DNA from: a virus | Lineage: Duplodnaviria > Heunggongvirae > Uroviricota > Caudoviricetes | Strand: one strand, 5' to 3' | IMG/VR virus record: IMGVR_UViG_2909272501_000001 | Length of the DNA stretch: 24,470 nt | Program-made: the position numbers and the translations under genes | Part shown: in pieces, positions 1-17,765 of the stretch | Layout: each line of letters starts with the position of its first letter | How positions within the stretch are numbered: the first letter of the stretch is position 1 | Notes under the pieces: model-generated | What the model was told of the DNA's origin: nothing | Seen by the model: the letters and a program-made list of their open reading frames with translations, nothing else | The model's database searches: none

Positions 1-411
1 ATGCCTGCCCCCGTCGTCCTGATCCTTGCGGCCGGGCGTGGAGAGCGCTTTCTCGCCTCCGGGGGAAATACCCATAAGTGTATCGGCTGGCGTCAGTCCC
101 CGGAGGTTGCGCCTTATCGCTGGCCATTTGAAGAAAACGGGAGAACTTTCGACCTTGCGATTGAACCGCAGATTACGACTAATGATCTGCGTCTGATGTT
201 GAGGCTGGCTCTTGCCGGCGGAGGAATAACAATTGCCACTCAGGAAACTTTCAGGCCATATATTGAAAGCGGTAAGCTTGTATCGCTGCTTGATGACTTT
301 CTTCCACAATTTCCGGGCTTCTATCTGTATTTCCCACAGCGTCGCAATATTGCACCAAAGCTCCGCGCCCTGATTGACTACGTCAAAGAATGGCGGCAGC
401 AATTGGTTTAA
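1..411 (+). CDS. LysR-family transcriptional regulator, C-terminal (effector-binding) part; 5' end lies outside the window
   Basis: ORF runs from the window edge to a stop at 411. The C-terminal residues ...GKLVSLLDDFLPQFPGFYLYFPQRRNIAPKLRALIDYV... fit the characteristic LysR-type C-terminal pattern. GC-rich, chromosome-like composition. Confidence 0.55.
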   Translation: MPAPVVLILAAGRGERFLASGGNTHKCIGWRQSPEVAPYRWPFEENGRTFDLAIEPQITTNDLRLMLRLALAGGGITIATQETFRPYIESGKLVSLLDDFLPQFPGFYLYFPQRRNIAPKLRALIDYVKEWRQQLV

Positions 412-536
412 ATAGCTGCACCTGCACTGCCTGATGTCAGAACAGTATTTTGATGAATTGCCAAGGTTACAATGGCACAAATGCGGCACAGGAGGAAACG
501 TGGTGTATTTAAATATGGGGTAACTCTTTGATTTTA

Positions 537-556
537 ATGGTGCGATAATAGGAATG
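537..556. repeat. Left copy of an imperfect direct repeat ATGGTGC(C)GATAATAGGA; candidate att core bounding the P4-like element
   Basis: ATGGTGCGATAATAGGAATG here versus ATGGTGCCGATAATAGGAGT at 11862-11881; identical over 17 positions with one 1-nt indel. The two copies bracket the whole P4-like gene set. Confidence 0.5.
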
Positions 557-612
557 AATATTAAAAGTTAAGACATTGATTTATAATAGATTATTATATT
601 CAAAAAATATAA

Positions 613-633
613 CTATACACATATCTATACACA
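613..633. repeat. Two direct copies of the 9-mer CTATACACA (613-621, 625-633); candidate integrase arm-type binding sites
   Basis: Same 9-mer recurs at the other end of the element (11741-11749, and inverted at 11698-11706). Position just inside the putative att core. Confidence 0.3.
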
Positions 634-675
634 CTGCGCGCATCGCTTGTTTTTTACACAATTAAAAGTAAGAAA

Positions 676-972
676 AAAGTTTTTTTTCGAAAGAACTGTT
701 CACACTGTTCACCTTTCTTTTGTCTCCTTTTATTTCAGAGTGATAGGTGGTGAATAATGGGTGAAGGGTGAACATTCGATTCTTCACCTCCGGCATTCTG
801 CCGGTGTGACTCATACCGGTGATTAATCCCCCATACTGAAATCACACAGGGAGAAAAAAAAGTTTTTTTTGATTTGATTGTTCACACTGTTCACCTTTCG
901 TTTTTCTCTTTTAATTTCAGTGTGATAACGGGTGAATACACGGTGAAGGGTGAACAGTGGATTGTTCACCTT
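676..972. repeat. crr-like cis replication region: two ~115-bp direct repeats (period ~182 bp), each with TGTTCACA/TGTTCACC and GGTGAACA-type octamers
   Basis: Octamers at 698-705, 707-714, 767-774, 781-788 and again at 880-887, 889-896, 949-956, 963-970. Lies immediately downstream of the alpha gene, as crr does in P4. TGTTCACC is the alpha-protein binding octamer of P4 (established knowledge). Confidence 0.7.
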
Positions 973-986
973 CGGGGAATTCAGGG

Positions 987-1013
987 ATAAAAAAAGACCG
1001 GCAGATGCCGGTC
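987..1013 (-). terminator. Rho-independent terminator candidate downstream of alpha
   Basis: Perfect 8-bp inverted repeat GACCGGCA/TGCCGGTC (996-1013) followed on the minus strand by a T-run (plus-strand A-run 989-995), 17 nt after the alpha stop. Confidence 0.55.
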
Positions 1014-1029
1014 AGATGAGTCATGATGG

Positions 1030-3363
1030 TCAGGTTGTCGCAGGGTCGTCACATTTTGGCAGCCAGTCGCCGTAGCTTTCCTCTTTCAGCGTCAGGTTGG
1101 TCTGTATCCCCTGTTTGGTATGGCGCTTCTCGTAATTCAGTCCGTATTCCTTCAGCATCACCGGCAGCCCCAGCCCGAACATTTTCAGACTGAGTACATT
1201 CCGGTAGCCGTTTGCCTCCATGTAGGCCAGATAGGCGTGATAGAGGTATTTACGGTAATTGCGCGGGATGATACTGGCGTTCCCCATATACATGCCGCTG
1301 GTCTGCGGCAGGGTTTCCAGATAGCCGATAAAATCAAACGTCGGGTCGGCATCCCGTTTGATGTTCAGCGCCTCGTCTGAGTTCTGCTGGGACTGAAGCA
1401 GTGACCGGGCGAGCATCGGGTCGCTGAACTTCTGCATCAGGTGACGCACGATGACCGCCAGCTCGCGGGTGATTTTGTCCTTAAGCTGCGGGTCGCGCTC
1501 CTGCGGGGCTATCTGTTCCGGGAAGTGAATAATCACCCGCCGGCGTGACACGCCGCCGCTGCGGTCGGTGAAGCGCATCGGGTTATTGTTCACGGCCAGA
1601 ATTACCGCCGGGATATGCGTGGAGTATGCATCCCGGTATTTCGGGTCAACGGACACCGCATCGCCGCCGGTGATGGCCTTGAGTCCGGCACCGTCGCCGC
1701 TCCATTTTTCCTGGTCCGGCAGGCGTATCAGTGAGAAGCCAGTTAACGCGGCACGTTCACGCGGGGATTCCAGCGTCTCGATGGTGGCCGACGTGGCGTT
1801 ATCCTCCCCGGCCAGCAGGGTGGCTATTTCGGCCATGATACTTTTGCCGCTGCCGCCGGGACCGGTCACCTCCAGAAAGAGCTGCCAGTCGTAGCGGTTT
1901 GCCAGCACCATAAACAGTGCGGCCAGAATCACGTCGCGTTTTTCCGCACGACCACCGGCGGCACGGTCAAGCCAGCGCCAGAACGCGGGGGCGTGGGTTT
2001 CCAGCGTTTCCCCTTCCACCGGCGGGGTGAAATCCACATCGCACAGGGTGCGCATCCAGTGTGACGGACTGTGCGGGTGGAACGTGCCGCTCTGCGTGTC
2101 GAGCACGCCGTTACGAAAGCCAATCAGGCGGCGGGAGGGGGCTTCCTGCTGCGGAATAATCAGCTTCAGGGTGTCCACCACGGAGGCCACCTTCCCGGAG
2201 GAGAACGGCGCGCGCAGACGCTGAAACAGCCCGGCCACATCCCGGGCAAAGTCCTGTGGCGGCAGCACCTTCCAGACACCATTTTCATAGCGGGACAGAA
2301 GCTGGCCGTTGGCATCGACCGCGAGCGCCTCGCCGTAATGCTCATAGATACGCATGGCCTTTTCGCTGGTACTCATGGCGGAAAACTCCGCTTCGCTCAT
2401 GGTGTCGAACGGGCTTTCAGCCGGTGGCCGGATGGCATCATAAATGGCCTTACGGGTGGCTTCCCCGCCGTACTGCGTGAAGGCATCATTCCAGTCACCG
2501 AAGACCGGCGGCAGGGCAACAACACCTTCACACGCATCTGCGGCTGCGGCGGCTTTTGTCTGGCCGTCACCGCTGAGGTCACGGTCAGCAGCAAGGACAA
2601 TCTGACAGGCCGGATGCTTCTGCCGGGCAAGGCTGGCCAGAGAAAGGAGGTTCACGGAAGAAAGCGCCACCATCACCGTTTCACCGGTCAGGTGATGCAC
2701 GGTAAGTGCGGTCGCGTATCCCTCCGCTATCCACAGACGTTTTCCGGCCTGATTCTGTCCTTCAAGGGTGTGACAGGTGCCCCTGACCTGTCCGCCTTTC
2801 AGGGTGCGCTTACGGCCGTCAGCGCTGATTAACTGAAGGTTAACCAGTTCGCCGCTGTCGTCATACAGTGGCACCACAAGGTCACCGGCGCACCAGCTCA
2901 CGCCACCGGCTCTGTGTGTGCCGGTCAGCATCCGGCATTCCCGGCCGGGAAAACCCTTGCGGGTCAGGTAGGCGTTACCGGTTCCGGGACGGGTTTTCGC
3001 CATCAGGGTTTGTGCCAGTGCGGCGGCGTTCTTCCGGGCAGCGTCTGTTTCAGCACCGGCGGCGGCCGTCACTGCCGGGTCAGCCGGGGGCAGACAGCCG
3101 GTCACGGCAGCCACCTTTGCGGCCGCGTCGGACGGGGAAACACCAAACACCTTTTCAACTAGTTTCAGGCCGTCACCGGCACCACACTGATTGCAGTACC
3201 AGGTGCCGCGCCCCTCCCTGTCATCAAAACGGAAGCGGTCACTCCCGCCACAGACCGGACAGGGCTGATGACGGTTTTTCAGCACCTGAATCCCCAGCGC
3301 CGGGAGAATACGCGGCCAGTGGCCGAGCGCATGGCTGACGGTGGCGGTTACGTTCATTTTCAT
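1030..3363 (-). CDS. alpha: P4 alpha-type primase-helicase (replication protein)
   Basis: 777-aa ORF, the length I recall for P4 alpha. N-terminal zinc-binding primase motif CPVCGGSDRFRFDD...WYCNQCG, Walker A GPGGSGKS in the C-terminal half. RBS AAGGAGA before the ATG. Flanked by TGTTCACC iterons at both crr-like and ori-like positions. Confidence 0.9.
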   Translation of the reverse strand: MKMNVTATVSHALGHWPRILPALGIQVLKNRHQPCPVCGGSDRFRFDDREGRGTWYCNQCGAGDGLKLVEKVFGVSPSDAAAKVAAVTGCLPPADPAVTAAAGAETDAARKNAAALAQTLMAKTRPGTGNAYLTRKGFPGRECRMLTGTHRAGGVSWCAGDLVVPLYDDSGELVNLQLISADGRKRTLKGGQVRGTCHTLEGQNQAGKRLWIAEGYATALTVHHLTGETVMVALSSVNLLSLASLARQKHPACQIVLAADRDLSGDGQTKAAAAADACEGVVALPPVFGDWNDAFTQYGGEATRKAIYDAIRPPAESPFDTMSEAEFSAMSTSEKAMRIYEHYGEALAVDANGQLLSRYENGVWKVLPPQDFARDVAGLFQRLRAPFSSGKVASVVDTLKLIIPQQEAPSRRLIGFRNGVLDTQSGTFHPHSPSHWMRTLCDVDFTPPVEGETLETHAPAFWRWLDRAAGGRAEKRDVILAALFMVLANRYDWQLFLEVTGPGGSGKSIMAEIATLLAGEDNATSATIETLESPRERAALTGFSLIRLPDQEKWSGDGAGLKAITGGDAVSVDPKYRDAYSTHIPAVILAVNNNPMRFTDRSGGVSRRRVIIHFPEQIAPQERDPQLKDKITRELAVIVRHLMQKFSDPMLARSLLQSQQNSDEALNIKRDADPTFDFIGYLETLPQTSGMYMGNASIIPRNYRKYLYHAYLAYMEANGYRNVLSLKMFGLGLPVMLKEYGLNYEKRHTKQGIQTNLTLKEESYGDWLPKCDDPATT

Positions 3364-3377
3364 GGTGTTGTTCTCCT

Positions 3378-3698
3378 TCAGTGCAGTACCGGCGCTTTTA
3401 TGTGACGGGCACAGAGTTCATCCATCACAACCAGCCCGAGAAAGGACAGCGACGGCGCGGCCTTCAGGGGGCCGGATTCCATTAAATCTTCCAGCAGGGC
3501 ACAGGCTATCTGACGCCCTTTTTCCTCACCGTGCTGGCGCAGATAAAAGCCCTCCAGCTCAGCGGCGATGGCCGCCTCCAGTGACTCAAGGGTGAGATGC
3601 GGGTAGCGGTGCTGACGTTCGCACACGGTCAGCCAGGCACAGGCGACAGCGCGACGGTAAAGGGCAGCGCGTAAGACGGGCGGTAAGGGTGTTTTCAT
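3378..3698 (-). CDS. Hypothetical protein, 106 aa, immediately upstream of alpha (position and length match what I recall as P4 orf106)
   Basis: ORF with RBS GGGAGGA upstream; stop 15 bp before the alpha start; GC-rich backbone codon usage. Confidence 0.5.
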
Positions 3699-3833
3699 TT
3701 GCTTTCCTCCCTGTGACAGATGACTGCATTCCGTGCCGGTTGCATTAACTGATAAGGCATATCTGCGTCTCCTGAAGACGTGCGTATCCCTGCGCGAATA
3801 CGCACATTTAATTTTTCGGGTGTCGTTTTTTAA

Positions 3834-4289
3834 TTACAGATAATTGCGGTAACTGTTATCCGGGGTGGTTTCCGGGTCAGGCTCCGTGCGGGGAATTTCC
3901 CGCCATTCCCGCGCTACCGGTGCTGCCCGGCTGACCGGAACAGTGTCCTGCGGGTAAATATCCAGATATTTCTCCCGCCATTTCTGTAATTCCGGGTCTC
4001 CGGCCATTTCTTTCAGTACCGCATGCCGGTTTACGGGGCTGCGTTTAAACAGGTCAGGACGGTCACAGGTAAATTCCCGCAGAAAACGCCCCAGCGGGAT
4101 GTCTGTGGTGCGTCCGTCAGCGAGGATACGCACAAGGATACTGAATTTACGGCGGTACGGGTTCCAGACAATGTCCGGGCAGCGGTACGGCATTTCCCAC
4201 GGAATACCGTCTTCCAGAATGCCGACCACGGCCACATCGGGAAAACCGGCAGAACGGTAAATCTCACCGGGCTGGGGAAAATCAAACAT
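3834..4289 (-). CDS. Hypothetical protein, 151 aa if started at the internal ATG at 4289 (track ORF extends to 4331)
   Basis: ATG at 4289-4287 overlaps the stop of the upstream 95-aa gene (ATGTTTGA), indicating translational coupling. Length matches what I recall as P4 orf151. Confidence 0.45.
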   Translation of the reverse strand: MFDFPQPGEIYRSAGFPDVAVVGILEDGIPWEMPYRCPDIVWNPYRRKFSILVRILADGRTTDIPLGRFLREFTCDRPDLFKRSPVNRHAVLKEMAGDPELQKWREKYLDIYPQDTVPVSRAAPVAREWREIPRTEPDPETTPDNSYRNYL

Positions 4290-4569
4290 GCGTCCTGTCT
4301 CCCCGGTCTTTCTGCTGGGCGAGAAAATCACGGCACAGGCCTTTGGCTTTCAGCTCATTCAGCACAAAATCAATATCCTCATTCAGGTAGCTGAAAATAT
4401 GCGGAATGTAGAGCTGATGCAGGCCGGAGAGTTCACGGTGAATCAAATCACCCCCAACAAACTGGGATACGGCGCTGGCGCGGTTGAGCTTATGGTAAGC
4501 CTCAATGCTGAGGTGTTCACGGGCGTCATGACGCGCTGAGACGGTCTGAGGGGCTTTTTTATTACGCAC
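4282..4569 (-). CDS. Hypothetical small protein, 95 aa, GTG start; possibly the epsilon-equivalent of the P4 left operon
   Basis: ORF in operon context. GTG start overlaps the stop of the upstream ORF (GTGCGTAA). The epsilon assignment rests only on length and order, not on recognised sequence. Confidence 0.45.
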
Positions 4570-5161
4570 GGGACACCCCCATCACCGGCAGACGGGCAGC
4601 AAGGGAGAGCACATAGTCACGGACAAGGGAACGGCGGGCACTGCGTTCATCACCGGCGACGGTGCGAAGCATGCAGATACGGGGATGACGGTCTGCGCGA
4701 CGGACAGCCGCAAACACAAAGACAAATTCAGGGTGTGAAGGGGTAAGGGTCGTAGCCATAAGGCAACCTCCGATAACAGCATAAATGACGCTATCGCCGG
4801 AGTTTCCACGCTCGATGGCGATAGCCCAGACGGGGGTGGAAATACCGGCGTTATCGGAAACCGGCCAGCCCGGAGGCTGCCCCGCCTGAGCTACCATTGA
4901 CTCTGCGGTATAATGAGCGGACGCGGGCAGAATGCACGGAGTGCCATTTGCTCGACTGACCACACACCACACCATAATCTGGCGCTCTGTGGCGTTGATT
5001 GCGACACAAAAAAAGACGCATGGCGCGTCATATGTCGCCGATAACATACTCGGGTTTCCACGCCCGGCTGCCGATTTTGCGGCAGCGGAAAAACTATATC
5101 CGCAAATGCCGGAAAAAGGCAAGCCAGAAAAAGGGAGTTTTTGCAGAGCGGGCATCATCAT
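4562..5161 (-). CDS. Uncertain ORF (199 aa from the internal Met; 214 aa on the track) covering the position where P4 carries its kil/eta/cI immunity region
   Basis: Open frame whose stop overlaps the next gene's start, but the translation is low-complexity and several other frames are also open in this GC-rich stretch. May be a misread of small genes and/or an RNA locus. Confidence 0.2.
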
Positions 5162-5424
5162 GCGTCGTACCCCCGTTTGCGTCCGGCAATGCGTCCGGCC
5201 ATCCATGCGGTGACTTCAGAGTGCAGCCAGGCCACATTTTTACCGCCAAGACTCACCTGCGGCGGAAATTCCCCCTTACGGATGAGTTCGTAGATGGTCG
5301 AGCGTGACAGGCCGCACAGGTGCATCACTTCCGGAAGACGCAAAAAACGCTCCTGTGTGATGTCCGGCAGCGGCATCAGTGGCGTCACAGGGGCAGGAGA
5401 CGGGGAAGAAAAAACAGCTTGCAT
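5158..5424 (-). CDS. AlpA/Vis-like small DNA-binding regulator (88 aa)
   Basis: Motif ...[29 protein letters not shown]... is typical of the AlpA/excisionase-like HTH family. RBS GAGG 8 nt upstream of the ATG at 5424. Same position and length as what I recall as P4 orf88 (vis). Confidence 0.65.
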
Positions 5425-5702
5425 CGGGCTACCTCGTTAATGTCCATACAGCACCGGATAAGTCCGTCCGGCTTCGGGTAGCGCTTTATTTTGTGAATAT
5501 TTTTGGCAGACGCAACAGGGGGGATTTGTTCCGGCAGCCTTACAATGGCTGTGTGTTTTTTGCACATCAGCGCCAGATAGCTTTAAAACGCTCTGGAAGG
5601 AGCTGGAAAAAATTATAGTGAAATACAAATTGTTTTTTCTTATTTATTTCAGTTAATTAATAAAAATAAAAAGTAATAAACAGCACAAAAAGTCCATGAA
5701 CG

Positions 5703-5806
5703 GGTGAACAGTGGTGAACAGACGGTGAACAGTCATTACTGCGATTGTTCACCCTTTAACTTACTGTATTACTTATCTTTTTTCTTATGGTGAACAGAGG
5801 TGAACA
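5703..5806. repeat. ori-like iteron cluster: six copies of GGTGAACA/TGTTCACC
   Basis: Octamers at 5703-5710, 5713-5720, 5724-5731, 5746-5753 (inverted), 5789-5796, 5799-5806, inside an AT-rich intergenic region ~4.8 kb from the crr-like repeats. P4 ori1 lies about 4.5 kb from crr and carries the same octamer (established knowledge). Confidence 0.65.
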
Positions 5807-5885
5807 GTAAAATATAAAAAAACAAACAGTAAGCCGGTTTTTCCTGCGACCTTTTCCTGGCTTGCCGGTCTGAGGATGAGTCTCC

Positions 5886-5903
5886 TGTGTCAGGGCTGGC
5901 ACA
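5886..5903 (+). promoter_or_regulatory. TGT-N12-ACA dyad; candidate Ogr/Delta-type activator site of the late promoter upstream of sid
   Basis: TGT (5886-5888), 12 nt, ACA (5901-5903), located ~75-90 bp upstream of the sid ATG. P2/P4 late promoters carry this dyad upstream of the -35 region (established knowledge). Confidence 0.4.
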
Positions 5904-5975
5904 TCTGCAATGCGTCGTGTTGTTGTCCGGTGTACGTCACAATTTTCTCAACCTGAAGTGACGAGGAGCCGGAAA

Positions 5976-6710
5976 ATGTCTGACAACACCATCCCTGAAT
6001 ATCTGCAACCCGCACTGGCACAACTGGAAAAGGCCAGAGCCGCCCACCTTGAGAACGCCCGCCTGATGGATGAGACCGTCACGGCCATTGAACGGGCAGA
6101 GCAGGAAAAAAATGCGCTGACGCAGGCCGACGGAAACGACGCTGACGACTGGCGCACGGCCTTTCGTGCAGCCGGTGGTGTCCTGAGCGACGAGCTGAAA
6201 CAGCGCCACATTGAGCGCGTGGCACGCCGGGAGCTGGTACAGGAATATGACAATCTGGCCGTGGTGCTGAATTTTGAACGCGAACGCCTGAAAGGGGCGT
6301 GTGACAGCACGGCCACCGCCTACCGGAAGGCACATCATCACCTTCTGAGTCTGTATGCAGAGCATGAGCTGGAACACGCCCTGAATGAAACCTGTGAGGC
6401 GCTTGTCCGGGCAATGCATCTGAGCATTCTGGTACAGGAAAATCCGCTCGCCAACACCACCGGGCATCAGGGCTACGTCGCACCCGATAAAGCTGTCATG
6501 CAGCAGGTGAAATCATCGCTGGAACAGAAAATAAAACAGATGCAAATCAGCCTCACCGGCGAGCCGGTTCTCCGGCTGACCGGACTGTCAGCGGCAACAC
6601 TTCCGCACATGGATTATGAGGTGGCAGGCACACCGGCACAGCGCAAGGTGTGGCAGGACAAAATAGACCAGCAGGGAGCAGAGCTTAAGGCCAGAGGACT
6701 GCTGTCATGA
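5976..6710 (+). CDS. sid: Sid, capsid size determination (external scaffold) protein
   Basis: 244 aa from the ATG at 5976 preceded by RBS GAGGAG (track ORF starts earlier at 5910). Length matches recalled P4 Sid. Followed by delta and psu in P4 order. Stop overlaps the delta start (ATGA). Confidence 0.85.
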   Translation: MSDNTIPEYLQPALAQLEKARAAHLENARLMDETVTAIERAEQEKNALTQADGNDADDWRTAFRAAGGVLSDELKQRHIERVARRELVQEYDNLAVVLNFERERLKGACDSTATAYRKAHHHLLSLYAEHELEHALNETCEALVRAMHLSILVQENPLANTTGHQGYVAPDKAVMQQVKSSLEQKIKQMQISLTGEPVLRLTGLSAATLPHMDYEVAGTPAQRKVWQDKIDQQGAELKARGLLS

Positions 6711-7207
6711 TTTACTGCCCGTCGTGTGGACATGTTGCTCACACCCGTCGCGCACATTTCATGGACGATGGCACCAAGATAATGATTGCACAGTGCCGGA
6801 ATATTTATTGCTCTGCGACATTTGAAGCGAGTGAAAGCTTTTTCTCTGACTGTAAAGATTCAGGAATGGAATACATTTCAGGCAAACAGAGATACCGCGA
6901 TTCACTGACGTCAGCCTCCGGCAGTATGAAACGCCCGAAAAGAATGCTTGTTACCGGATATTGTTGTCGGAGATGTAAAGGCCTTGCACTGTCAAGAACA
7001 TCGCGGCGTCTGTCTCAGGAAGTCACCGAGCGTTTTTATGTGTGCACGGATCCGGGCTGTGGTCTGGTGTTTAAAACGCTTCAGACCATCAACCGCTTCA
7101 TTGTCCGCCCGGTCACGCCGGACGAACTGGCAGAAAGCCTGCATGAAAAACAGGAACTGCCGCCAGTACGCTTAAAAACACAATCATATTCGCTGCGTCT
7201 GGAATGA
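6707..7207 (+). CDS. delta: Delta, Ogr-family zinc-finger late transcription activator (tandem Ogr-like domains)
   Basis: 166 aa. Two Cys4 Ogr-type motifs: CPSCGH...CRNIYCSATF and CCRRCKG...CTDPGCGLVF. Confidence 0.85.
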   Translation: MIYCPSCGHVAHTRRAHFMDDGTKIMIAQCRNIYCSATFEASESFFSDCKDSGMEYISGKQRYRDSLTSASGSMKRPKRMLVTGYCCRRCKGLALSRTSRRLSQEVTERFYVCTDPGCGLVFKTLQTINRFIVRPVTPDELAESLHEKQELPPVRLKTQSYSLRLE

Positions 7208-7280
7208 GGGCTGCCGGTTAACACCGGCCGTCGCCGCACACCGTATTTTTATTCTTCAGCATGATGAGAAAGAGATAACG

Positions 7281-7853
7281 ATGGAAAGCACAGCCTTACA
7301 GCAGGCCTTTGACACCTGTCAGAATAACAAAGCAGCATGGCTGCAACGCAAAAATGAGCTGGCAGCGGCCAAACAGGAATATCTGCGGCTTCTGTCAGGA
7401 GAAGGCAGAAACGTCAGCCGCCTGGACGAATTACGCAATATTATCGAAGTCAGAAAATGGCAGGTGAATCAGGCCGCCGGTCGTTATATTCGTTCGCATG
7501 AAGCCGTTCAGCACATCAGCATCCGCGACCGGCTGAATGATTTTATGCAGCAGCACGGCACAGCACTGGCGGCGGCACTGGCACCGGAGCTGATGGGCTA
7601 CAGTGAGCTGACGGCCATTGCCCGAAACTGTGCCATACAGCGTGCCACAGATGCCCTGCGTGAAGCCCTTCTGTCCTGGCTTGCGAAGGGGGAAAAAATT
7701 AATTATTCCGCACAGGATAGCGACATTTTAACGACCATCGGATTCAGGCCTGACGCGGCTTCGGTGGATGACAGCCGTGAAAAATTCACCCCTGCGCAGA
7801 ACATGATTTTTTCGCGTAAAAGTGCGCAACTGGCATCACGTCAGTCTGTGTAA
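7281..7853 (+). CDS. psu: Psu, polarity suppression / capsid decoration protein
   Basis: 190 aa, N-terminus MESTALQQAFDTCQNNKAAWLQRKNELAAA..., last gene of the sid-delta-psu operon. Confidence 0.85.
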   Translation: MESTALQQAFDTCQNNKAAWLQRKNELAAAKQEYLRLLSGEGRNVSRLDELRNIIEVRKWQVNQAAGRYIRSHEAVQHISIRDRLNDFMQQHGTALAAALAPELMGYSELTAIARNCAIQRATDALREALLSWLAKGEKINYSAQDSDILTTIGFRPDAASVDDSREKFTPAQNMIFSRKSAQLASRQSV

Positions 7854-7888
7854 AATTCCCCGAAAATCCGCCCGTTTTTACTGAAAAA

Positions 7889-7972
7889 AGCCATGCATCG
7901 ATAAGGTGCATGGCTTTGCATGCGTTTCCCTGCCTCATTTTCTGCAGACCGCGCCATTCCCGGCGCGGTCTG
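7889..7972 (+). other. Two strong hairpins after psu (7889-7915, 9-bp stem; 7945-7972, 11-bp perfect stem); possible terminator and/or packaging-region structure
   Basis: AGCCATGCA...TGCATGGCT and CAGACCGCGCC...GGCGCGGTCTG inverted repeats. Only the first is followed by a weak T-rich tract. Confidence 0.3.
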
Positions 7973-8017
7973 AGCGTGTCAGTGCAACTGCATTAAAACC
8001 GCCCCGCAAAGCGGGCG

Positions 8018-8036
8018 GGCGTGGCGGGGGGAGCAT
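8018..8036. other. cos-like site (candidate cohesive-end sequence)
   Basis: GGCGTGGCGGGGGGAGCAT matches 15 of 19 positions of the P2/P4 cohesive end as I recall it (GGCGAGGCGGGGAAAGCAC). It sits right after psu, where cos lies in P4, next to a GC-rich imperfect palindrome (7999-8019). Confidence 0.35.
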
Positions 8037-8118
8037 TGCGCGCTAAGGCTGATATTATAATTTTCTTTAATTCTATTTGGTATTTTGGCTTTATTCGTCA
8101 GAAGGAACGTTTAGAAAT

Positions 8119-8146
8119 AGACCACTACAATGGATTGTAGCGGTCT
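8119..8146 (-). terminator. Hairpin terminator candidate ending the int-RT-partner operon
   Basis: 12-bp inverted repeat AGACCACTACAA/TTGTAGCGGTCT (one G-U-compatible mismatch), 4-nt loop, ~10 nt downstream of the partner gene stop, followed by a modest T-rich tract on the minus strand. Confidence 0.4.
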
Positions 8147-8155
8147 GCATGATAT

Positions 8156-8896
8156 CTAGCGTTGCATTTCAGTTACTATGAAATTTTCTTCTGTAATAGA
8201 ATTCATTATCTCAAAGTACAATTCTTCAGGTTGAATAAACGCCAACTCTTTGCAAAGGTTGACAATGGTATCACTATAAGTGATACCCATCCGAGGATTG
8301 AAAAGCTCAAATCTCTTGATGTTTCTTTTGTTTTTTGAGTAAAAGTTTAAAGTGAAATATATTAGCACCTGTCTAAGATCGTAAACACTAAACTTCCTAT
8401 CTCCTGATTTTATTTCCACAAGAACATTTGAATAATAAATATCGCCATATGAATTATTTATTACTCCGCATCCATCGAATTGTGGAGACACTTCAATTTG
8501 GTTTTCCATTCCATATCGAGACAAAATGTTTCTTGCTATTTCCCTTATGGCATTGTACTCAACCATGCTTAAGGGTAGCTTGAAGTTAGAACCGTAAGCG
8601 AACCGCTGTAGATATTCTTTTGTTTTTTCAAAAACAACCTGAAAATCAGCATTATGGAAGATATCATGTGCTGAAAGAATATTTCTGTCTAACGAATCAT
8701 TCTGTATTGCCCTATATAAATTAAATGCGCACTCATTAACAAAGACGTTATTTGACCTATTAGCGCAGTCATCTAGAGGAGGATAAACGTCCTCGATGAG
8801 ACTGCCGTTAATGATGCGTATGAAATTATTAGCATTTGGAAGCAATTGATTCCAAAATGAAGTGAATTTTCGAGAAAACGTTAATTCAGATATCAT
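8156..8896 (-). CDS. Hypothetical 246-aa protein, partner of the reverse transcriptase; possible nuclease-like effector
   Basis: ATG overlaps the RT stop (ATGA at 8893-8896), with RBS GAGGA inside the RT 3' end. Very AT-rich. Segment GDIYYSNVLVEIKSG could be a D...ExK (PD-(D/E)xK-like) core, but this is unverified. Confidence 0.75.
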   Translation of the reverse strand: MISELTFSRKFTSFWNQLLPNANNFIRIINGSLIEDVYPPLDDCANRSNNVFVNECAFNLYRAIQNDSLDRNILSAHDIFHNADFQVVFEKTKEYLQRFAYGSNFKLPLSMVEYNAIREIARNILSRYGMENQIEVSPQFDGCGVINNSYGDIYYSNVLVEIKSGDRKFSVYDLRQVLIYFTLNFYSKNKRNIKRFELFNPRMGITYSDTIVNLCKELAFIQPEELYFEIMNSITEENFIVTEMQR

Positions 8897-10521
8897 AGCG
8901 CATCCTCAAGATTTCTTGCGGTATGCCTTTTACTTGCCCAATCCCTGTAAATCACCTCTACAAAGTTGAATGTTTTCTTATTATGCTCTCTCCAGTGCCG
9001 TCCTTCATCACCTAAGATGTAACTGGAAACGATCAATAGTCTTCTCTGCAACGGATGCATTGCAGAGAAATTTTTTTTGATATCAGAAAGCCATGCGTAA
9101 GAATTAATTTTTGCCATTGACTGTGTAACTATGTTCTTGACTAAGATGCTTTCTGGATTGTTATTGTATATTTCACTAAGGATTAGGGTGGATTTTTCTG
9201 AATTTTCTTTTGAGAGCATTCGGGCTACATAGGCTAAGTTGAGCTCAGTACTCAAAATATATGAATCTTGTTTAATTAGTGCAGTTATTTTATCAAGAAT
9301 AATATCTTTGGTTTCTGTGCTTAATTTTTGCCAGTTGGAGTTAGCTACTTGAATTATAGTTGTAAATATTGGATATAACTCATGCAAGTTATTAAACATT
9401 ACTTTGAAAGCACTACTTATTATTTCATCTGATGTTGCTGAGAATGCCTTTATCAAATGCTTGCTAAAAGATTGGTTAATTTTTGATTTTTGTAACTCAC
9501 TACTCAGCATAGCTAACAAGTCAAAATCTTTTAAAGATTCCTTTATCTCTTCATATTCCTCTATCGCATTTGCTGAGTAAGGATCGAATCTTATAGGAAG
9601 ACTCATAAATTTAGCCTTCATAGGAGATTCTTCATCTTCATCATTACCATGCAACTTAGCTTTAGTTACTGAAAGGAACTCTTCTTTAGTAACAATATTG
9701 GTTTTTTGTTTCTGTAAAGTTAGCCCTTCATTTTCCATCAGTTTTTTACTAAGCAAAGTTAAAATCTTATGAGCATCCTCTCTAGAGTTACAAAAAATAA
9801 CAAAGTCGTCGACATAACGCTTATAGTTGATTCTATTCATAGACAATAATTTATCAATAGAATCTAGAGCTAGTTCTGCTAATATTCTAGAGGCAGGACA
9901 TCCAACTGGTACTCCATATGATTTTGTTTCACTAAATGTCTGTAGTAATTTCTTGATTTTCCCAGAGTAATCTTTATTGGGGTCGACTCTATCTAACGCA
10001 TTTTCTAAACGGTGGTGATAAATACGCGGATAGAAATCTGCTATATCGCATGTAAGTACATACTTTATTTCATCGTTAGAACATTCAGAGATACTGTCTT
10101 CTTGATATTTTCTCCAAGAGATCTCTTTATCAAAAAGAGAACCATCAGCAAGGTTTGGTTTAAAGCGATATGAATAAACCTGCGTTTTAGTAGATCTATT
10201 CCTTTCAATATCATCAGCGATTTTTAAAACTAACCCAAGAAAAAAAGCATTCCAGAATGGATCAATTTGGGTCGCCCACCTGTAACCATAATAACCAATA
10301 CTTGAAAAGCTATTAATTATGTTTGGTGGAATCTCGATCCTTTTATTTTCAAAGTCATTAAATGTTTGCATTAATGCAGTTTTTACTTTCTCCTTATCAT
10401 CTTCAAATAACCGACTTTCAAATGGGTAAGGGAAAATATCTGTATCGCCGTGCTTTATAATATTTTCCAATGCAAGCTCAAAGCAATTTTCTAGTTTACT
10501 ACTATCAAACTCGTTACTCAT
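8893..10521 (-). CDS. Reverse transcriptase, 542 aa, with ~230-aa alpha-helical C-terminal extension; UG/Abi-like defence-associated RT candidate
   Basis: RT motifs in canonical order: LTCDIADFYPRIYHHRL (motif A-like), SYGVPVGCPASRILAELAL (motif B'-like), KRYVDDFVIF (YVDD catalytic motif C), NEGLTLQKQKTNIV (motif D/E-like). RBS AAGGAGA; start overlaps the int stop by 8 nt. No retron-type VTG motif seen. Confidence 0.85.
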   Translation of the reverse strand: MSNEFDSSKLENCFELALENIIKHGDTDIFPYPFESRLFEDDKEKVKTALMQTFNDFENKRIEIPPNIINSFSSIGYYGYRWATQIDPFWNAFFLGLVLKIADDIERNRSTKTQVYSYRFKPNLADGSLFDKEISWRKYQEDSISECSNDEIKYVLTCDIADFYPRIYHHRLENALDRVDPNKDYSGKIKKLLQTFSETKSYGVPVGCPASRILAELALDSIDKLLSMNRINYKRYVDDFVIFCNSREDAHKILTLLSKKLMENEGLTLQKQKTNIVTKEEFLSVTKAKLHGNDEDEESPMKAKFMSLPIRFDPYSANAIEEYEEIKESLKDFDLLAMLSSELQKSKINQSFSKHLIKAFSATSDEIISSAFKVMFNNLHELYPIFTTIIQVANSNWQKLSTETKDIILDKITALIKQDSYILSTELNLAYVARMLSKENSEKSTLILSEIYNNNPESILVKNIVTQSMAKINSYAWLSDIKKNFSAMHPLQRRLLIVSSYILGDEGRHWREHNKKTFNFVEVIYRDWASKRHTARNLEDAL

Positions 10522-11698
10522 TCACATTCTCCTTAATAAAAATATAATCTGAATACCACTGCATCATATCACGGCGTTTATCAATATATTGAGCATGATT
10601 ATACGTACCTCTAATATTATTCTTATCTATATGAGCAAGCTGTATTTCTATCCAAGCCGAATCATATCCTTTTTCGTGGAGGATAGTAGATAAGGAATGT
10701 CGAAATCCATGACCAGTAAGTTTTCCACCATAACCAATACGCTTGATAACTTGGTTAATACTCGCCTCACTCATAGGCTTGTTCGGATCGTTCCGCCCCG
10801 GAAAAACATAACTATACTTCCCTGTCATCATCTTGAGTTCATTTAGCAAATCTAACGCTTGAGTCGACAAAGGCACAAGGTGTGATCTGCGCATTTTCAT
10901 CCTTTCAGCAGGAATTTCCCAAATAGCGTTATCTAAATCAAATTCTGACCATAATGCCGCACGTAATTCGATGGTTCTAACACCTGTAATCATGAGCAAT
11001 TTCGTGGCAATCAGGACAAGCCGACTTCCGGTATATCCGTTTAAGGCGCGAAGAAAATCAGGTATCTCATTAGCCTTTAAGAACGGGAAATGATTTGATT
11101 GGTGTACATTGAGGGCGCTTGAAAGATCCGCAGCAGGGTTAAACTCAGCCCTTCCAGTAGCAATGGCATAGCGGAAAACTTCTGAGCATCGCTGCCGAAC
11201 TTTGCGCATTTTTTCTAATGCACCGCGCTTTTCGATTTTACGCAGCACATTAAGCAGTTCTAGCGGTTTAATCTCTCCCACTGGCCTTGTTCCCACATAA
11301 GGAAAAATGTCGTTCTTAAACGCTTCCATGATGTCTGATGCATATCCCGCCGACCATTTGGTAGACTTCTGTTGATGCCACTCTCTGGCTATCTTTTCGA
11401 AGGCGTTCTCTGACTCTGTTTGCAGAGCCAGCTTTTGCTCTTTTCGAACCTCACTAGGGTTCTTTCCTTCTGCCACAAGTTTTCGAGCTTCATCACGACG
11501 GGAACGAGCATCAGCAAGAGTGATCGTTGGGTAAACACCAAGCGAGATCATTTTGGGTTTACCGGCATAGCGATAACGAAATCGCCAGCTTTTACTTCCA
11601 TTTGGCTCTACAAGTAAAGACAACCCTTGCCCATCCCCAAGTGTATAGGCTTTAGCTTCAGGTTTAGCACGGCGAATCTGCATATCATTTAGGGGCAT
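10514..11698 (-). CDS. int: P4-type (DUF4102-family) tyrosine integrase
   Basis: 394 aa. N-terminal ...RRAKPEAKAYTLGDGQGLSLLVEPNGSKSWRFRYRYAGKPKMISLGVYP... is characteristic of P4/CP4-57-type integrases. Catalytic R...HxxR...H...Y residues (GVRTIEL, GHGFRHSLS, LAHIDKN..RGTYNHAQY). Confidence 0.88.
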   Translation of the reverse strand: MPLNDMQIRRAKPEAKAYTLGDGQGLSLLVEPNGSKSWRFRYRYAGKPKMISLGVYPTITLADARSRRDEARKLVAEGKNPSEVRKEQKLALQTESENAFEKIAREWHQQKSTKWSAGYASDIMEAFKNDIFPYVGTRPVGEIKPLELLNVLRKIEKRGALEKMRKVRQRCSEVFRYAIATGRAEFNPAADLSSALNVHQSNHFPFLKANEIPDFLRALNGYTGSRLVLIATKLLMITGVRTIELRAALWSEFDLDNAIWEIPAERMKMRRSHLVPLSTQALDLLNELKMMTGKYSYVFPGRNDPNKPMSEASINQVIKRIGYGGKLTGHGFRHSLSTILHEKGYDSAWIEIQLAHIDKNNIRGTYNHAQYIDKRRDMMQWYSDYIFIKENVNE

Positions 11699-11749
11699 GT
11701 GTATAGAATTCCAAAATCGAACAGGAACATATACATAATCCTATACACA
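11698..11749. repeat. Arm-type 9-mers near the int start: TGTGTATAG (11698-11706, inverted) and CTATACACA (11741-11749)
   Basis: Same 9-mer as at 613-633; the first copy overlaps the int start codon. Confidence 0.3.
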
Positions 11750-11861
11750 TTTAGTACTGGATTCTACTGGAAAGTTATGGACTAATACGAACAGTAAAAA
11801 CAAAAAATCTTTTATAAAACAGTGCGGTTATGGATAAATACGGATGTTTGAAGAAGTGGAG

Positions 11862-11881
11862 ATGGTGCCGATAATAGGAGT
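11862..11881. repeat. Right copy of the imperfect direct repeat; candidate att core shared by both elements
   Basis: ATGGTGCCGATAATAGGAGT, see 537-556. The first 9 nt (TGGTGCCGA) resemble the reverse complement of a tRNA 3' end, but no T-arm follows. Confidence 0.5.
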
Positions 11882-12023
11882 AAAACACTCGATTAATCTC
11901 GTGTTAATGCCATCACCTACGACCATTACTAATTGATTGAATCTGATAGAAAAATTATCATTTTCTATACCTTACAATCAATTTACACATTACAAACGCT
12001 CCGACACTTTAGCCGGAGATTTT

Positions 12024-13301
12024 ATGAGATACAAGCCTAACCAATACTTAATCTGTGATTCTTACGGTAACTACTATTTAAGGATCACGCTGCCTGTGTA
12101 TATGCAGCCCTTTTTTGAAGGAAAAAGGACGTTTGTCAGAAGTCTACACACAAGTAATCTTCGTGTGGCACGTCGAAAGCGTGATCAGATTGCAGATGAA
12201 TACCATTGCTTACGGGAGAGTGTTGCCCCTGTAAACAGCACAATAGAAAACACGCTGGAACTGTTACGCAGTAAGGCTAAATACGCCAAAACAGCTACCA
12301 GAATGCAAGATACAGCGTCTTCGTGTCCGTCATTGCTTAAAATTCTTGAAATCTACCTGACAATTAACAGCACGAAGAAGAAGCCAGCCACTTTAGCTAA
12401 GGCAAGAAAAGCGGTAGAGATGTTTCTCTCCTACCGTAAAAAGCCTGATATTGCATTGCAAGATGTAAGCCGCACCACTGTTACAGGCTGGATTGAACAC
12501 ATGCAAAAAACCCTTTCACAACAATCAATTGCAAATTATATCAGCCCAATGGTCCAGCTATGGGAGTTAGCTTCATCACGTTACCACGATGCGCCAGAAA
12601 GGGCGCTCTCCCCCTGGCGAGGGCATAGGCTTGATGTGGCACAAAGTAGAGAGAGCTACGAGGCATTTTCTAACAAAGAGCTATTGCAGGTGTTGCAAGT
12701 ATTTTCCGGTGATTCAGCAGAAAACAAAGAAATGACGGCTTTGTGTCTTATCGGTTTATATACAGGTATGCGGATCAATGAGATAGCAAGTATCACAATA
12801 GACGATGTGAAAGAGATCGAAGGTGTGCTGTGTTTTGAAATCACACAGGGAAAAACGAAAGCTGCGGCACGTCTTGTGCCTGTGCATAACCTTATCACTC
12901 CGTTGGTGTTGTCGCTGCGTGAAAAGCCTCACAATGGCTTTTTGTTCTATCACGCCAGCATTACAGAACGTGCTGACGGTAAACGCTCTACGTGGCATAC
13001 ACAACGATTTACAAGAGCTAAACGAAAGGCTTTAGGGGAAAAGGGAACAGAAAGGAAAGTGTTTCATTCTCTGAGACACGGAGTAGCACAGCTTCTTGAT
13101 CGAAATCAAATTCCAGAAGACAGGATCGCCCTTCTCCTGGGCCATACACGCGGCAATACAGAAACATTCCGCACATATAGCAAGAATGCAGCTTCTCCAG
13201 TAGAGCTTAAAAAATATATTGAGCTTTTACGCTACCCTGAAATAGAGAAAGGCTTATCAATCAATAAAAAATCAAATTTAAGGCGTAAAACAACGCCATA
13301 G
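12024..13301 (+). CDS. Second tyrosine recombinase/integrase (425 aa from the ATG at 12024; track ORF begins at a TTG at 11937)
   Basis: Catalytic signature GMRINEI (R), FHSLRHGVAQ (HxxR), LLGHT (H), TYSKN (Y). RBS GGAG 5 nt before the ATG. AT-rich. Confidence 0.75.
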   Translation: MRYKPNQYLICDSYGNYYLRITLPVYMQPFFEGKRTFVRSLHTSNLRVARRKRDQIADEYHCLRESVAPVNSTIENTLELLRSKAKYAKTATRMQDTASSCPSLLKILEIYLTINSTKKKPATLAKARKAVEMFLSYRKKPDIALQDVSRTTVTGWIEHMQKTLSQQSIANYISPMVQLWELASSRYHDAPERALSPWRGHRLDVAQSRESYEAFSNKELLQVLQVFSGDSAENKEMTALCLIGLYTGMRINEIASITIDDVKEIEGVLCFEITQGKTKAAARLVPVHNLITPLVLSLREKPHNGFLFYHASITERADGKRSTWHTQRFTRAKRKALGEKGTERKVFHSLRHGVAQLLDRNQIPEDRIALLLGHTRGNTETFRTYSKNAASPVELKKYIELLRYPEIEKGLSINKKSNLRRKTTP

Positions 13302-13381
13302 ACGTAATAAAGAGGCTTCAATATAGATTGATGCCTCTTTTATGATTATCTCGTTACAGAGCGTTTCATAGGCGTTTAAGG

Positions 13382-14059
13382 CTATTGTTTAAATACTGGC
13401 GTTACAACGTCTTGCCCTGGGCTTTTTTGATTTTTCTGTTCTGTTGTATTTACCTGCATTTTAACCTGTCCCCCTACAGATTTATTTGGTGCTGTTTTTA
13501 CAGCAATAGCATTAGTGGTGGCCTTAGAGACAAGACGAATTTGCTCAAAATCAAGAGTAAACAATAAGCTTTCGCTTGCTTCTTCTTCGTAAGACATGCC
13601 AACTAACACAACGTTGTCATAATTTTTTAACTCAGTGACAAGTAGGAAAGGTTGGCGACTGTCCATCAACTGATTTAGGTATTCAAGCATAAGCATACGT
13701 CGATTGCCGTTAATTCCCGCATTCTTAATCATATCGGGATTGAGTTTCAATACGGTTTCAGAGATACGCCCCTGTAATGTGAACTTGTTATTCCGTATTT
13801 GAACATGATCACTAACTTCTGATCCTGATTCGACGGCATAGCTTGTAACGTCTGCATTTCGGCTAACTTTCGTCGATTCCACGTTATCAAATGATAATGC
13901 CCGGTAGTCATTGTAAGCAGCATTTGCACCACTGCCGAGGTTAGAGGTAATAATCGCAAAGCCGTTACCCCCTTTAGTTGTTCTACCGTTGCTATCGTTG
14001 CTTGTGCTGTTGATTTTCGCCTCAGTCGGGCGACCAATGGTTAACGGACCCATTGCCAT
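13382..14059 (-). CDS. Hypothetical protein, 225 aa (possible virion-associated protein)
   Basis: ORF with RBS AAGGA; last gene of a co-oriented leftward block that includes capsid-like candidates. No recognisable motif. Confidence 0.45.
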   Translation of the reverse strand: MAMGPLTIGRPTEAKINSTSNDSNGRTTKGGNGFAIITSNLGSGANAAYNDYRALSFDNVESTKVSRNADVTSYAVESGSEVSDHVQIRNNKFTLQGRISETVLKLNPDMIKNAGINGNRRMLMLEYLNQLMDSRQPFLLVTELKNYDNVVLVGMSYEEEASESLLFTLDFEQIRLVSKATTNAIAVKTAPNKSVGGQVKMQVNTTEQKNQKSPGQDVVTPVFKQ

Positions 14060-14106
14060 AATTTGTAATCCTTATTTAAGGGGGCTAAACAGCCCCACAG
14101 TGATGA

Positions 14107-15948: not shown

Positions 15949-15982
15949 GCTAATTGTTTCCCTGTATTATGATTGTTGTTTA

Positions 15983-16180
15983 TTATTGTTTTTTAGAGCA
16001 ATAGTATTGAATTGCTTCGAAAGTGCTGCATCCAGTCTGAAAGACACGCTGACGCACATTATTTGCATCAATTTCTAAAAGGCGGCAAAGCGCCGATGTG
16101 TTTATAACTGATTCCTCGCTAATAGCTGCCAGTTCTTTTACAGATTTAAGAATTAATGCCTGTGAATTTTCTGCGTTCAT
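15983..16180 (-). CDS. Small hypothetical protein, 65 aa
   Basis: ORF between the 343-aa and 613-aa genes; no motif recognised. Confidence 0.3.
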   Translation of the reverse strand: MNAENSQALILKSVKELAAISEESVINTSALCRLLEIDANNVRQRVFQTGCSTFEAIQYYCSKKQ

Positions 16181-16335
16181 TGGTTTTCTCTCACATATAT
16201 ATTTTTATTTGGGTTTGTAGACAGTAGAAAAAAAATAAGGGCAAGAGACAGCGCATATTTTGCTTATATGATTATCCCTTACCCTTATTGCCCCGATTAT
16301 TTCCAGACGATGGGGAATCGTCTATTAACGCTTTA

Positions 16336-17367: not shown

Positions 17368-17381
17368 TATTATTTTCCTTG

Positions 17382-17765
17382 TTAAGTCGTAGGGATCGCA
17401 AGTTCTTCATAACCAGCAATTACAAAGCCGAGAGATTGCAGTTTTGCAATAACACTTGCCTTTTCCATACTGTTAAATTCAATCCCATCTTCAGCCAGAA
17501 TAACGAAAGTAGGATGTGCAACCACTACGCTTTCCTGTCCTTCATAAGCCGGTTCAACCACTACGTGAGCAATATCAGAAGCGGTTGTTGCTTTGGTGCC
17601 ATCGGCTTTCAGCAAAGCCCCGACAATAAGATCGTCAGTGAGAGGTGAAGCCAGTTTGACGAGGCGATCTTGCAGCACTGGATCAGCAGCGTAAGCTACT
17701 ACCTTACAGCGTGAACGGGAATTATCCGCATTCACTGCTTTTAATTTTCCATATGGGTTAGCCAT
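17382..17765 (-). CDS. Hypothetical protein, 127 aa; head-decoration-like candidate (speculative)
   Basis: Small Ala/Val-rich beta-type protein starting MANPYGKLKAVNADN..., immediately upstream of the 343-aa gene. Confidence 0.45.
   Translation of the reverse strand: MANPYGKLKAVNADNSRSRCKVVAYAADPVLQDRLVKLASPLTDDLIVGALLKADGTKATTASDIAHVVVEPAYEGQESVVVAHPTFVILAEDGIEFNSMEKASVIAKLQSLGFVIAGYEELAIPTT

Follow-up and report, generated by a model that had tools for sequence, protein, structure and literature searches.

A P4-family phage satellite with a predicted DRT type 8 system at a thrW-derived site in Escherichia coli

Backbone genes and cis-acting regions

The window, i.e., the whole stretch of 24,470 nucleotides that was analysed, contains at positions 537-11881 an element whose larger part is closely related to phage P4 (NC_001609 / X51522). 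Positions 673-8017 align to P4 in one piece at 97.4% nucleotide identity (P4 4291-11624, crr through the right cos end), with the homology beginning at window position 673, equivalent to P4 4291. No nucleotide match to P4 was found for 557-672 or for 8018-11881, and P4 1-4290 has no similarity here. The genes of the minus strand are alpha, a primase-helicase (1030-3363; 777 aa, 766/777 identical to P4 alpha); orf106 of the P4 cnr region (3378-3698; 106/106); orf151 (3834-4289; 151/151); epsilon, the helper derepression protein (4282-4569; 95 aa, 94/95); an Ash/Icd-like ORF across the immunity region (4562-5161; 199 aa, 176/199 compared to its P4 equivalent; Pfam Phage_ASH, 1.4e-23; PHROG 6928, 1.2e-84); and orf88, an AlpA/Vis-type excisionase-regulator (5158-5424; 87/88; Pfam Phage_AlpA, 7.3e-21). 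These are followed on the plus strand by sid, for capsid size determination (5976-6710; 244 aa from the P4-equivalent start, 241/244); delta, an Ogr-like transactivator of helper late genes (6707-7207; 166 aa, 162/166); and psu, for polarity suppression and capsid decoration (7281-7853; 190 aa, 188/190). All backbone proteins are full length and 88-100% identical to those of P4, and their genes stand in the P4 order; for alpha, orf106, orf151, epsilon, orf88, sid, delta and psu the identity is 97-100%.

An earlier note on this DNA had listed backbone proteins of 777, 106, 151, 95, 88, 244, 166 and 190 aa, lengths with which both the gene calls and the P4 alignments agree, and the genes, the flanking repeat, crr, the octamers and cos all lie where it had placed them. 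The alignment to the P4 reference that it had called for is the one given above. Its claim of P4 synteny holds from crr to cos, whereas the int/attP module and the cargo differ from those of P4. Its list did not include the 199-aa Ash/Icd-like ORF (4562-5161) or the CI RNA (4814-4901).

The regulatory and cis-acting regions are those of P4 as well. The CI immunity RNA, a member of the C4 antisense RNA family, lies at 4814-4901 on the minus strand (Rfam RF01695, 77.9 bits; gathering score 45), and its target/leader elements of the isrK and c4-a1b1 families lie at 5009-5099 on the same strand (RF01394, 74.7 bits; RF03163, 51.5 bits); both the RNA and its targets exceed the Rfam gathering scores. 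The cis-required replication region crr (673-975) consists of two 121-nt direct repeats, 673-793 and 855-975, with octamers GGTGAACA, and the ori cluster (5703-5806) contains six copies of the same octamer, matching the type 1 repeats of P4 ori. Five octamers in crr and six at 5703-5806 are the only copies in the window, compared to an expectation of 0.69. The cos packaging site (7978-8045) was located by alignment to the circularised ends of P4: the right end of P4 stops at 8017, and the cos-type 19-mer GGCGTGGCGGGGGGAGCAT then occupies 8018-8036. This cohesive-end equivalent differs from that of P4/P2 at 4/19 positions, and the cos region has contiguous matches of 85-91% in many P2-like phages.

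Membership in the P4-like satellites was judged by the seven-component definition of PMC8628076. All seven marker genes are present in the P4 order: the integrase is on the psu side of the element (10514-11698, minus strand); psu, delta and sid form an adjacent block; and alpA, epsilon and alpha follow the order of P4. The cos site is of the type common to P2-like helpers (15/19 compared to P4, with the P2-like phage matches described above). The element is not phage P4 itself, as P4's int/attP module and its gop-beta-cII genes were not found. Immunity by CI RNA and the ori/crr octamers are common to the two, and the sizes are 11.6 kb for P4 and 11.3 kb here.

Cargo and recombination module

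The last third of the element (8018-11881) is unrelated to P4 and contains a DRT type 8 pair and a P4-family integrase. The GC content drops from ~50-63% before cos to 32-38% exactly after it. Next to cos lies a PD-(D/E)xK nuclease gene, the predicted DRT type 8 partner (8156-8896, minus strand; 246 aa; PADLOC RTasPDDEXK, 5.5e-69; RefSeq WP_000622599), in which a D...EIK motif is visible. It overlaps the stop codon of a gene for a DRT type 8 (UG7) reverse transcriptase (8893-10521, minus strand; 542 aa; PADLOC Drt8, 4.9e-166, residues 11-532; WP_000064054) with Pfam RVT_1 (1.2e-18) and YVDD at residue 236; the start of this gene in turn overlaps the int stop by 8 nt. A UG7-group reverse transcriptase with catalytic YxDD and an adjacent PD-(D/E)xK nuclease-like partner are the two marks of DRT type 8 (PMC9226505), and both are found here. 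Thus, the variable slot between cos and int holds a predicted DRT type 8 anti-phage system.

UG7 has been found in the variable regions of P2 and P4, and a UG7 system protects against T5, depending on both active sites (Mestre et al. 2022, PMC9226505). The two proteins fit the PADLOC models at full length, and their assignment to the system of Mestre et al. comes from sequence. The cargo is already known, because the exact pair WP_000064054 and WP_000622599 is among the P4 hotspot loci of Rousset et al. 2022 (PMC9122126), with at least 124 entries among the P4-encoded loci of Table S1A, where it is labelled only 'RVT_1 + hypothetical'. The slot is the same psu/cos-int defence hotspot, next to cos, with no substantive difference. 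In place of gop, beta and cII of P4, the element thus carries DRT type 8.

The integrase (10514-11698, minus strand; 394 aa) is a tyrosine recombinase of the P4 family with the three-domain architecture of the P4 type (Pfam Arm-DNA-bind_3, Phage_int_M and Phage_integrase), and 161/439 positions (~37%) are identical to P4 Int. It is found beside intact tRNA-Thr in 120 genomes and is predicted to be specific to thrW, not to leuX, which provides the attachment core of P4. In retronphage phiR73, which targets selC, the cargo is a retron instead of a UG7/DRT8 enzyme. Two putative attP arms were delineated. The arm on the crr side (557-672), without P4 homology, contains two direct copies of CTATACACA (613-621 and 625-633), which are candidate arm-type Int sites. 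The arm on the int side (11699-11861) has candidate CTATACACA sites at 11698-11706, on the minus strand and overlapping the int start codon, and at 11741-11749, on the plus strand; this arm is conserved beside thrW in strains MSHS 472 and VR50. The recombination module has evidently been exchanged for a P4-type integrase whose predicted attachment site is the 3' end of thrW.

Junctions at thrW

The element is bounded by two copies of a direct repeat, at 537-553 (ATGGTGC-GATAATAGGA) and 11862-11879 (ATGGTGCCGATAATAGGA), which agree in 17 of 18 columns, with one gap. A search with the 19-mer that allowed for mismatches only missed the first copy, because the difference is an indel. The copies are 11,325 bp apart, start to start, and the span including both is 11,345 bp, in agreement with the ~11.3 kb of the earlier note. 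A direct repeat of 17/18 with one gap arises in 38% of simulated sequences of 24.5 kb (mean 0.52); by itself, the flanking repeat is not beyond chance. Its meaning derives from where it lies, from being identical to the 3' end of thrW and from the comparative evidence.

The tRNA identity of the repeat was derived by comparison with loci that hold an intact thrW. Positions 11863-11881, read on the opposite strand, are the final 19 nt of tRNA-Thr thrW, as in MSHS 472 and VR50, and int lies 163 nt from this thrW-derived repeat. The repeats thus correspond to a tRNA 3' end with the integrase beside the tRNA-side copy. The int-side att copy (11862-11881) is common to the satellite and the next island (island 2), and the distal att copy on the crr side (537-553) is a hybrid in which the thrW 3' end and downstream flank are joined to the satellite attP. 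An intact tRNA at the int-side junction is seen in MSHS 472 and VR50, not in the window, where only the 19 nt of thrW precede island 2. ARAGORN found no tRNA genes in the window. The statement that the element is not inserted at an intact tRNA is therefore literally correct, but the repeat represents the 3'-terminal 19 nt of thrW. In WWCOL-256, a genome matching the window, intact thrW is ~57 kb away.

A synthetic empty site, consisting of the left flank, a single repeat copy and the right flank, is uninterrupted in other E. coli (100% identity in 6 genomes; at least 80% query coverage in 277), which is the comparison with related strains that the note had suggested. In MSHS 472 the same satellite adjoins intact thrW-proA (99.96% identity over 7141 nt), and in VR50 the same two junctions enclose a diverged relative, whose cargo consists of a UvrD-helicase and an ATP-dependent nuclease (Gabija-like) instead of DRT type 8. 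These sites and the P4 homology bear out the reading of the repeat as insertion junctions and of 537-11881 as a complete P4-like satellite prophage. The VR50 element has a left junction identical to the distal att copy here, including the 1-nt gap. We therefore rejected post-insertion decay as the origin of the gap, which is inherited from attP. Strand exchange would have taken place within ATGGTGC, because the attP-derived single C is always in the crr-side junction.

More generally, the P4-like satellites at thrW (VR50, MSHS 472 and ~120-150 complete genomes) share the junctions, attP arms and integrase lineage seen here (85-100% nucleotide identity), and in these other E. coli, too, the cargo follows int immediately. 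In MSHS 472 and VR50, however, the satellite is the sole occupant of thrW beside the intact tRNA. Here, thrW-integrating elements stand in tandem and the satellite occupies the outermost place; its thrW-derived site, at the distal end of this array, is equivalent to the ptwF/CP4-6 end in K-12. The distal end of CP4-6 (intF - ptwF - yagP) is at the same chromosomal position, with a thrW remnant by the yagP pseudogene and paoD; K-12 retains ~48 nt of thrW, with another island and integrase (intF), and no P4-like element there. As judged by divergence, the satellite is shown to have spread horizontally, and recently, because it diverges between strains by 0.04%, about 10 times less than the chromosomal flanks (0.4-0.7%). 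The 343-aa protein of island 2 had no match in tblastn against phages, and no paper tying satellites to Phapecoctavirus was found.

Order of arrival, state and significance

The order of integration was examined by synthetic junctions and by comparison of element and flank divergence, and both orders were found in nature. We slightly favor a course in which the satellite entered intact thrW first, and later arrivals (island 2, other material and a lambdoid prophage), each integrating into the regenerated thrW, pushed it outward. The int arm found here is joined directly to intact thrW in 120 genomes, and the junction sequences are consistent with this course. The occurrence of both array orders, with island 2 outside a P4-like element in A7 and LR782232.1, is predicted by the rule that newcomers take the intact tRNA. 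Conversely, island 2 is far more common beside the yagP flank (277 genomes) than in combination with the satellite (~30), and the near identity of satellite copies across unrelated backgrounds suggests late arrival. In addition, an internal element of 12.7 kb is all that distinguishes 3R-type strains from the window; therefore, some internal event, insertion or excision, has occurred.

A serious but somewhat less probable course is that island 2 was already at thrW and the satellite entered the 19-nt thrW remnant at its far end, which would have acted as a secondary attB because the native downstream (yagP-side) flank is still there. The empty-site junction with this remnant is 100% identical in 6 genomes, and the remnant retains the putative overlap ATGGTGC, followed by 12 nt more of thrW, as well as its native flank. 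Moreover, a perfect 19-nt remnant flanks the 12.7-kb element of 3R-type strains on either side, far from the intact tRNA. Nevertheless, entry into intact thrW explains every junction equally, the divergences of element and flank do not date events, and that 19 nt with flank suffice as attB is an assumption.

Irrespective of the order of arrival, we consider it very likely that 537-11881 is an intact phage satellite of the P4 family, probably functional, in the prophage state. It is improbable that the element is a fixed defective remnant, past excision and mobilisation and persisting only as a carrier of defence genes. The direct repeat is imperfect, but the 1-nt gap is a normal integration product. 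Two further bases are missing from the distal att copy in WWCOL-256, where excision may be blocked, and in MSHS 472 the alpha side of the element is cut off from the Ash-like ORF onward; however, every backbone gene of P4 is intact in the window, as are the CI immunity RNA, the octamers of ori and crr, and cos, and near-identical copies occur in differing site states and unrelated backgrounds. It is of negligible probability that the repeats are parts of neighbouring islands between which a P4-like gene set happens to lie: island 2 shares the int-side copy and such a repeat is not rare by chance, but VR50 and MSHS 472, whose junctions refute this explanation, have the same element and junctions without island 2, and the attP arms beside both copies bear the same CTATACACA sites.

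By analogy with the established biology of P4, thrW-derived sites would be where Int and Vis insert the element and excise it, and CI RNA would keep it silent. A P2-like helper would activate it; Epsilon and Delta would exploit this helper, Alpha would replicate the element from ori/crr, Sid and Psu would build small capsids, and the helper terminase would package it at cos. The near-identical copies in unrelated backgrounds lend indirect support to such packaging and transfer. The reverse transcriptase and nuclease pair would protect the lysogen against other phages.

The element is real but ordinary, being of an already-known kind with a cargo pair that is already catalogued; as a clean, fully delimited example of known things, it matters little beyond good annotation. 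It exemplifies P4-like satellites that swap integrase modules, bear defence systems beside cos and share a tRNA gene with other, stacked elements. The attB needs of a P4-family integrase could conveniently be tested with these defined junctions, this predicted attP and the site states available in nature (satellite alone; island 2 alone; both; both with a third element), and the same material would allow DRT type 8 to be tested where it naturally occurs. If the satellite did enter the remnant at the far end of island 2, dead tRNA fragments would be live attachment sites, and tandem arrays could grow at their outer edge and not only from the tRNA.

P4 backbone and cos region

Using megablast against deposited phages, we found that window positions 673-8017 correspond to P4 positions 4291-11624 in a single unbroken match of 97.4% identity. 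According to the P4 record, these limits are the first base of crr and the right cohesive end, respectively. The earlier note had proposed a complete P4-like satellite prophage bounded by a 17/18-nt direct repeat and suggested alignment to the P4 reference; with this match in one piece, from crr to the right cos end, and with all genes present and free of stops, the P4-like backbone is borne out. The residues identical to P4 number 766/777 in alpha, 106/106 in orf106, 151/151 in orf151, 94/95 in epsilon, 176/199 in the 199-aa Ash/Icd-like ORF, 87/88 in orf88, 241/244 in sid, 162/166 in delta and 188/190 in psu; no stop codon was found in any of these nine proteins. The CI immunity RNA (C4 family, 4814-4901) and its target elements (5009-5099) exceeded the Rfam gathering scores, and the replication octamer GGTGAACA was observed 11 times versus 0.69 expected, every copy lying within crr or ori.

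The cohesive-end 19-mer GGCGTGGCGGGGGGAGCAT (8018-8036) directly follows the P4 right end and has 4/19 mismatches to the P4/P2 cohesive end; many P2-like phages match the entire cos region contiguously at 85-91%. The left half of cos is closer to other P2-like phages, such as vB_EcoM-613R3 and Yersinia P2-like phages (~91%), than to P4. Immediately past cos, the GC content falls from ~50-63% to 32-38%, and megablast gave no P4 match for window 8018-11881 or 557-672.

Insertion at thrW

The direct repeat is present as described, with copy 1 (537-553, ATGGTGC-GATAATAGGA) and copy 2 (11862-11879, ATGGTGCCGATAATAGGA) aligning over 18 columns, of which 17 match and one is a gap; the copies start 11,325 bp apart and span 11,345 bp when both are included. 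We compared this with random 24.5-kb sequences simulated to keep the dinucleotide composition of the window. A one-gap 17/18 direct repeat occurs somewhere in 38% of them, and therefore the repeat alone proves nothing. Alignment with the annotated intact tRNA-Thr gene thrW, found beside proA in other loci, shows that 11863-11881, on the complementary strand, reads as the final 19 nt of that gene. The suggestion that the element is apparently not inserted at an intact tRNA thus holds in part: there is no tRNA gene within the window, but the repeat itself is the thrW 3' end. At the left flank, which closes the thrW island region distally, paoD is followed by yagP, an N-terminally truncated LysR-type pseudogene; at the corresponding spot in E. 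coli K-12, yagP is followed instead by a ~48-nt thrW remnant and intF.

A synthetic empty site (window 137-536 joined to 11862-12261) was searched in all complete E. coli genomes. It was recovered as a single piece at 100% in 6 genomes and was at least 80% covered in 277. Between yagP and intact thrW, CFSAN029787 has a sole occupant, island 2, the element that adjoins the satellite in the window. In MSHS 472, the satellite adjoins intact thrW-proA-proB, with identical int and reverse transcriptase (RT) genes and 99.96% identity over 7141 nt. In VR50, a diverged relative (backbone 97% and int region 85% identical, with a helicase and a nuclease as cargo) fills exactly the interval from the yagP flank to intact thrW. 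The int-side arm of the satellite is joined to intact thrW in 120 genomes, and the crr-side junction lies at the yagP flank in 152. Because the empty site and alternative occupancy states exist in other genomes, the repeats are insertion junctions, as claimed. The MSHS 472 satellite is itself cut short from the Ash-like ORF outward (7214-7648 of that locus) by a deletion that reaches paoA and takes out alpha, crr, the distal att copy, yagP and paoB-D.

The VR50 crr-side junction is identical to that of the window, missing C included, and all int-side junctions carry the full thrW sequence; hence, the single C is derived from attP. An origin of the 1-nt gap after insertion is ruled out by the same VR50 junction, the imperfect repeat being a normal product of integration. 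We infer that strand exchange takes place within ATGGTGC, left of the gap position. The predicted circular attP junction is ...GAAGAAGTGGAG-ATGGTGC-GATAATAGGAATGAATATT..., and the predicted repaired site after excision is yagP flank-ATGGTGCCGATAATAGGAGT-AAAACACTCG. Only four exact copies of CTATACACA occur in the window, all in the attP arms (613, 625, 11698 on the minus strand and 11741), and these are candidate arm-type Int sites; one of them runs into the int start codon, an arrangement that the P4 record also shows for an arm repeat.

Integrase, cargo and predicted life cycle

The int gene (10514-11698, minus strand) encodes the P4-type domains Arm-DNA-bind_3, Phage_int_M and Phage_integrase, although only 161/439 residues are identical to P4 Int. 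The interval from int to cos holds two cargo genes that overlap and share a strand, encoding a 542-aa reverse transcriptase (PADLOC Drt8, 4.9e-166; YVDD at residue 236) and a 246-aa RT-associated PD-(D/E)xK protein (PADLOC model, 5.5e-69; D...EIK motif); int and the RT gene share 8 nt, at the stop of the former and the start of the latter. Judging from these matches, the cargo is DRT type 8. Protection against T5 has been reported for DRT type 8, with a requirement for the active sites of both RT and nuclease, and UG7 RTs have been noted in P2/P4 variable regions (Mestre et al., PMC9226505). A defence hotspot with over 300 arrangements of genes has been described in the slot from psu/cos to int, and the exact pair WP_000064054 and WP_000622599 accounts for at least 124 entries in Table S1A (Rousset et al., PMC9122126).

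The definition of P4-like satellites comprises seven components, and integrase exchange and scattered chromosomal positions have been reported among them (PMC8628076). The satellite has all seven in the P4 order. The analysis thus confirms what was observed and supports its reading as a P4-like prophage, with four corrections: the element differs from P4 in integrase, attachment site and cargo, the repeat is the thrW 3' end, its imperfection is a normal product of integration, and the satellite lies at the outer end of a tandem array. No feature of the satellite falls outside published descriptions; the element is of an already known kind.

By homology to P4, Int and Vis would integrate and excise the satellite, and the CI RNA would maintain immunity. 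A P2-like helper would switch on the late promoters, Epsilon would derepress the helper and Delta would activate its late genes. Alpha would replicate the satellite from ori and crr, Sid and Psu would remodel the helper capsid, and the helper terminase would cut cos. The 11.3-kb size fits a small P4-type capsid, and the differences in cos hint that the preferred helper may not be that of P4.

Tandem array and spread of the satellite

Except for a 2-bp gap in att copy 1, strain WWCOL-256 agrees with the window. Its array runs from yagP through the satellite, a 19-nt thrW remnant, island 2 (~13 kb), a 45-nt thrW remnant, and IS1, rnlAB and a lambdoid prophage to intact thrW, ~57 kb from the satellite int-side repeat; the satellite is the outer member. 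The 2-bp gap (L001, the WWCOL-256 locus, 12537-12553; window 539-540) falls where crossover is inferred in the distal copy, leaving ATG--GCGAT, and may fix the satellite in place in that strain. Outside the window (L001 39702-41238), this array continues with the RnlA/RnlB toxin-antitoxin pair, IS1 and the lambdoid prophage, in which ISVsa5 splits the tail fibre gene and the integrase abuts intact thrW.

Most other carriers have an extra 12.7-kb integrase-bearing element directly after the satellite int (11882-24582 in the strain 3R locus), with perfect 19-nt thrW remnants at both ends; the window is without it, and its position would be 11881/11882. It encodes a 645-aa site-specific integrase, a TIGR04141 protein, a second RT-domain protein, DUF4062, an HTH protein and a small recombinase, and looks like another mobile defence island exploiting the same remnant. 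The satellite in these carriers is identical to that of the window (11,345/11,345).

Island 2 (12-13 kb; window 11882-24470, extending ~600 bp beyond the end; L001 23880-37071; 14421-26486 in another locus, L008) is a thrW-integrating element with its own DUF6538-type integrase (12024-13301), and its integrase end lies at the yagP flank in at least 277 complete genomes. It also encodes a Dit-like baseplate protein, a 613-aa tape-measure-like protein, a winged-helix replication-initiator-like protein and a weak major-head-like protein, the remainder being small unknown ORFs and long non-coding gaps. Phage homologues of the tape-measure-like protein were found only in 145-150 kb Phapecoctavirus-type lytic myoviruses (134 records, ~30% identity), and window 20283-20637 and 13479-13552 show 92-99% DNA identity to such phages. 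One possible reading of island 2 is a satellite-like element, as yet undescribed, of large lytic phages.

Two routes to the outer position are compatible with every junction, and both array orders are found in nature. We lean slightly toward entry of the satellite into intact thrW, with later arrivals displacing it outward; entry into the thrW remnant at the outer edge of island 2 is a serious alternative, to which we give somewhat less than an even chance. The divergence is 0.04% for the satellite (window versus MSHS 472), 0.27% for island 2 (window versus CFSAN029787) and 0.4-0.7% for the chromosomal flanks, figures that do not date the integration events. That the satellite is a dead remnant is argued against by its low divergence relative to these backgrounds. 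Because it is ~10 times less diverged than the surrounding chromosomal backgrounds, the comparison points to recent horizontal transfer of the satellite.
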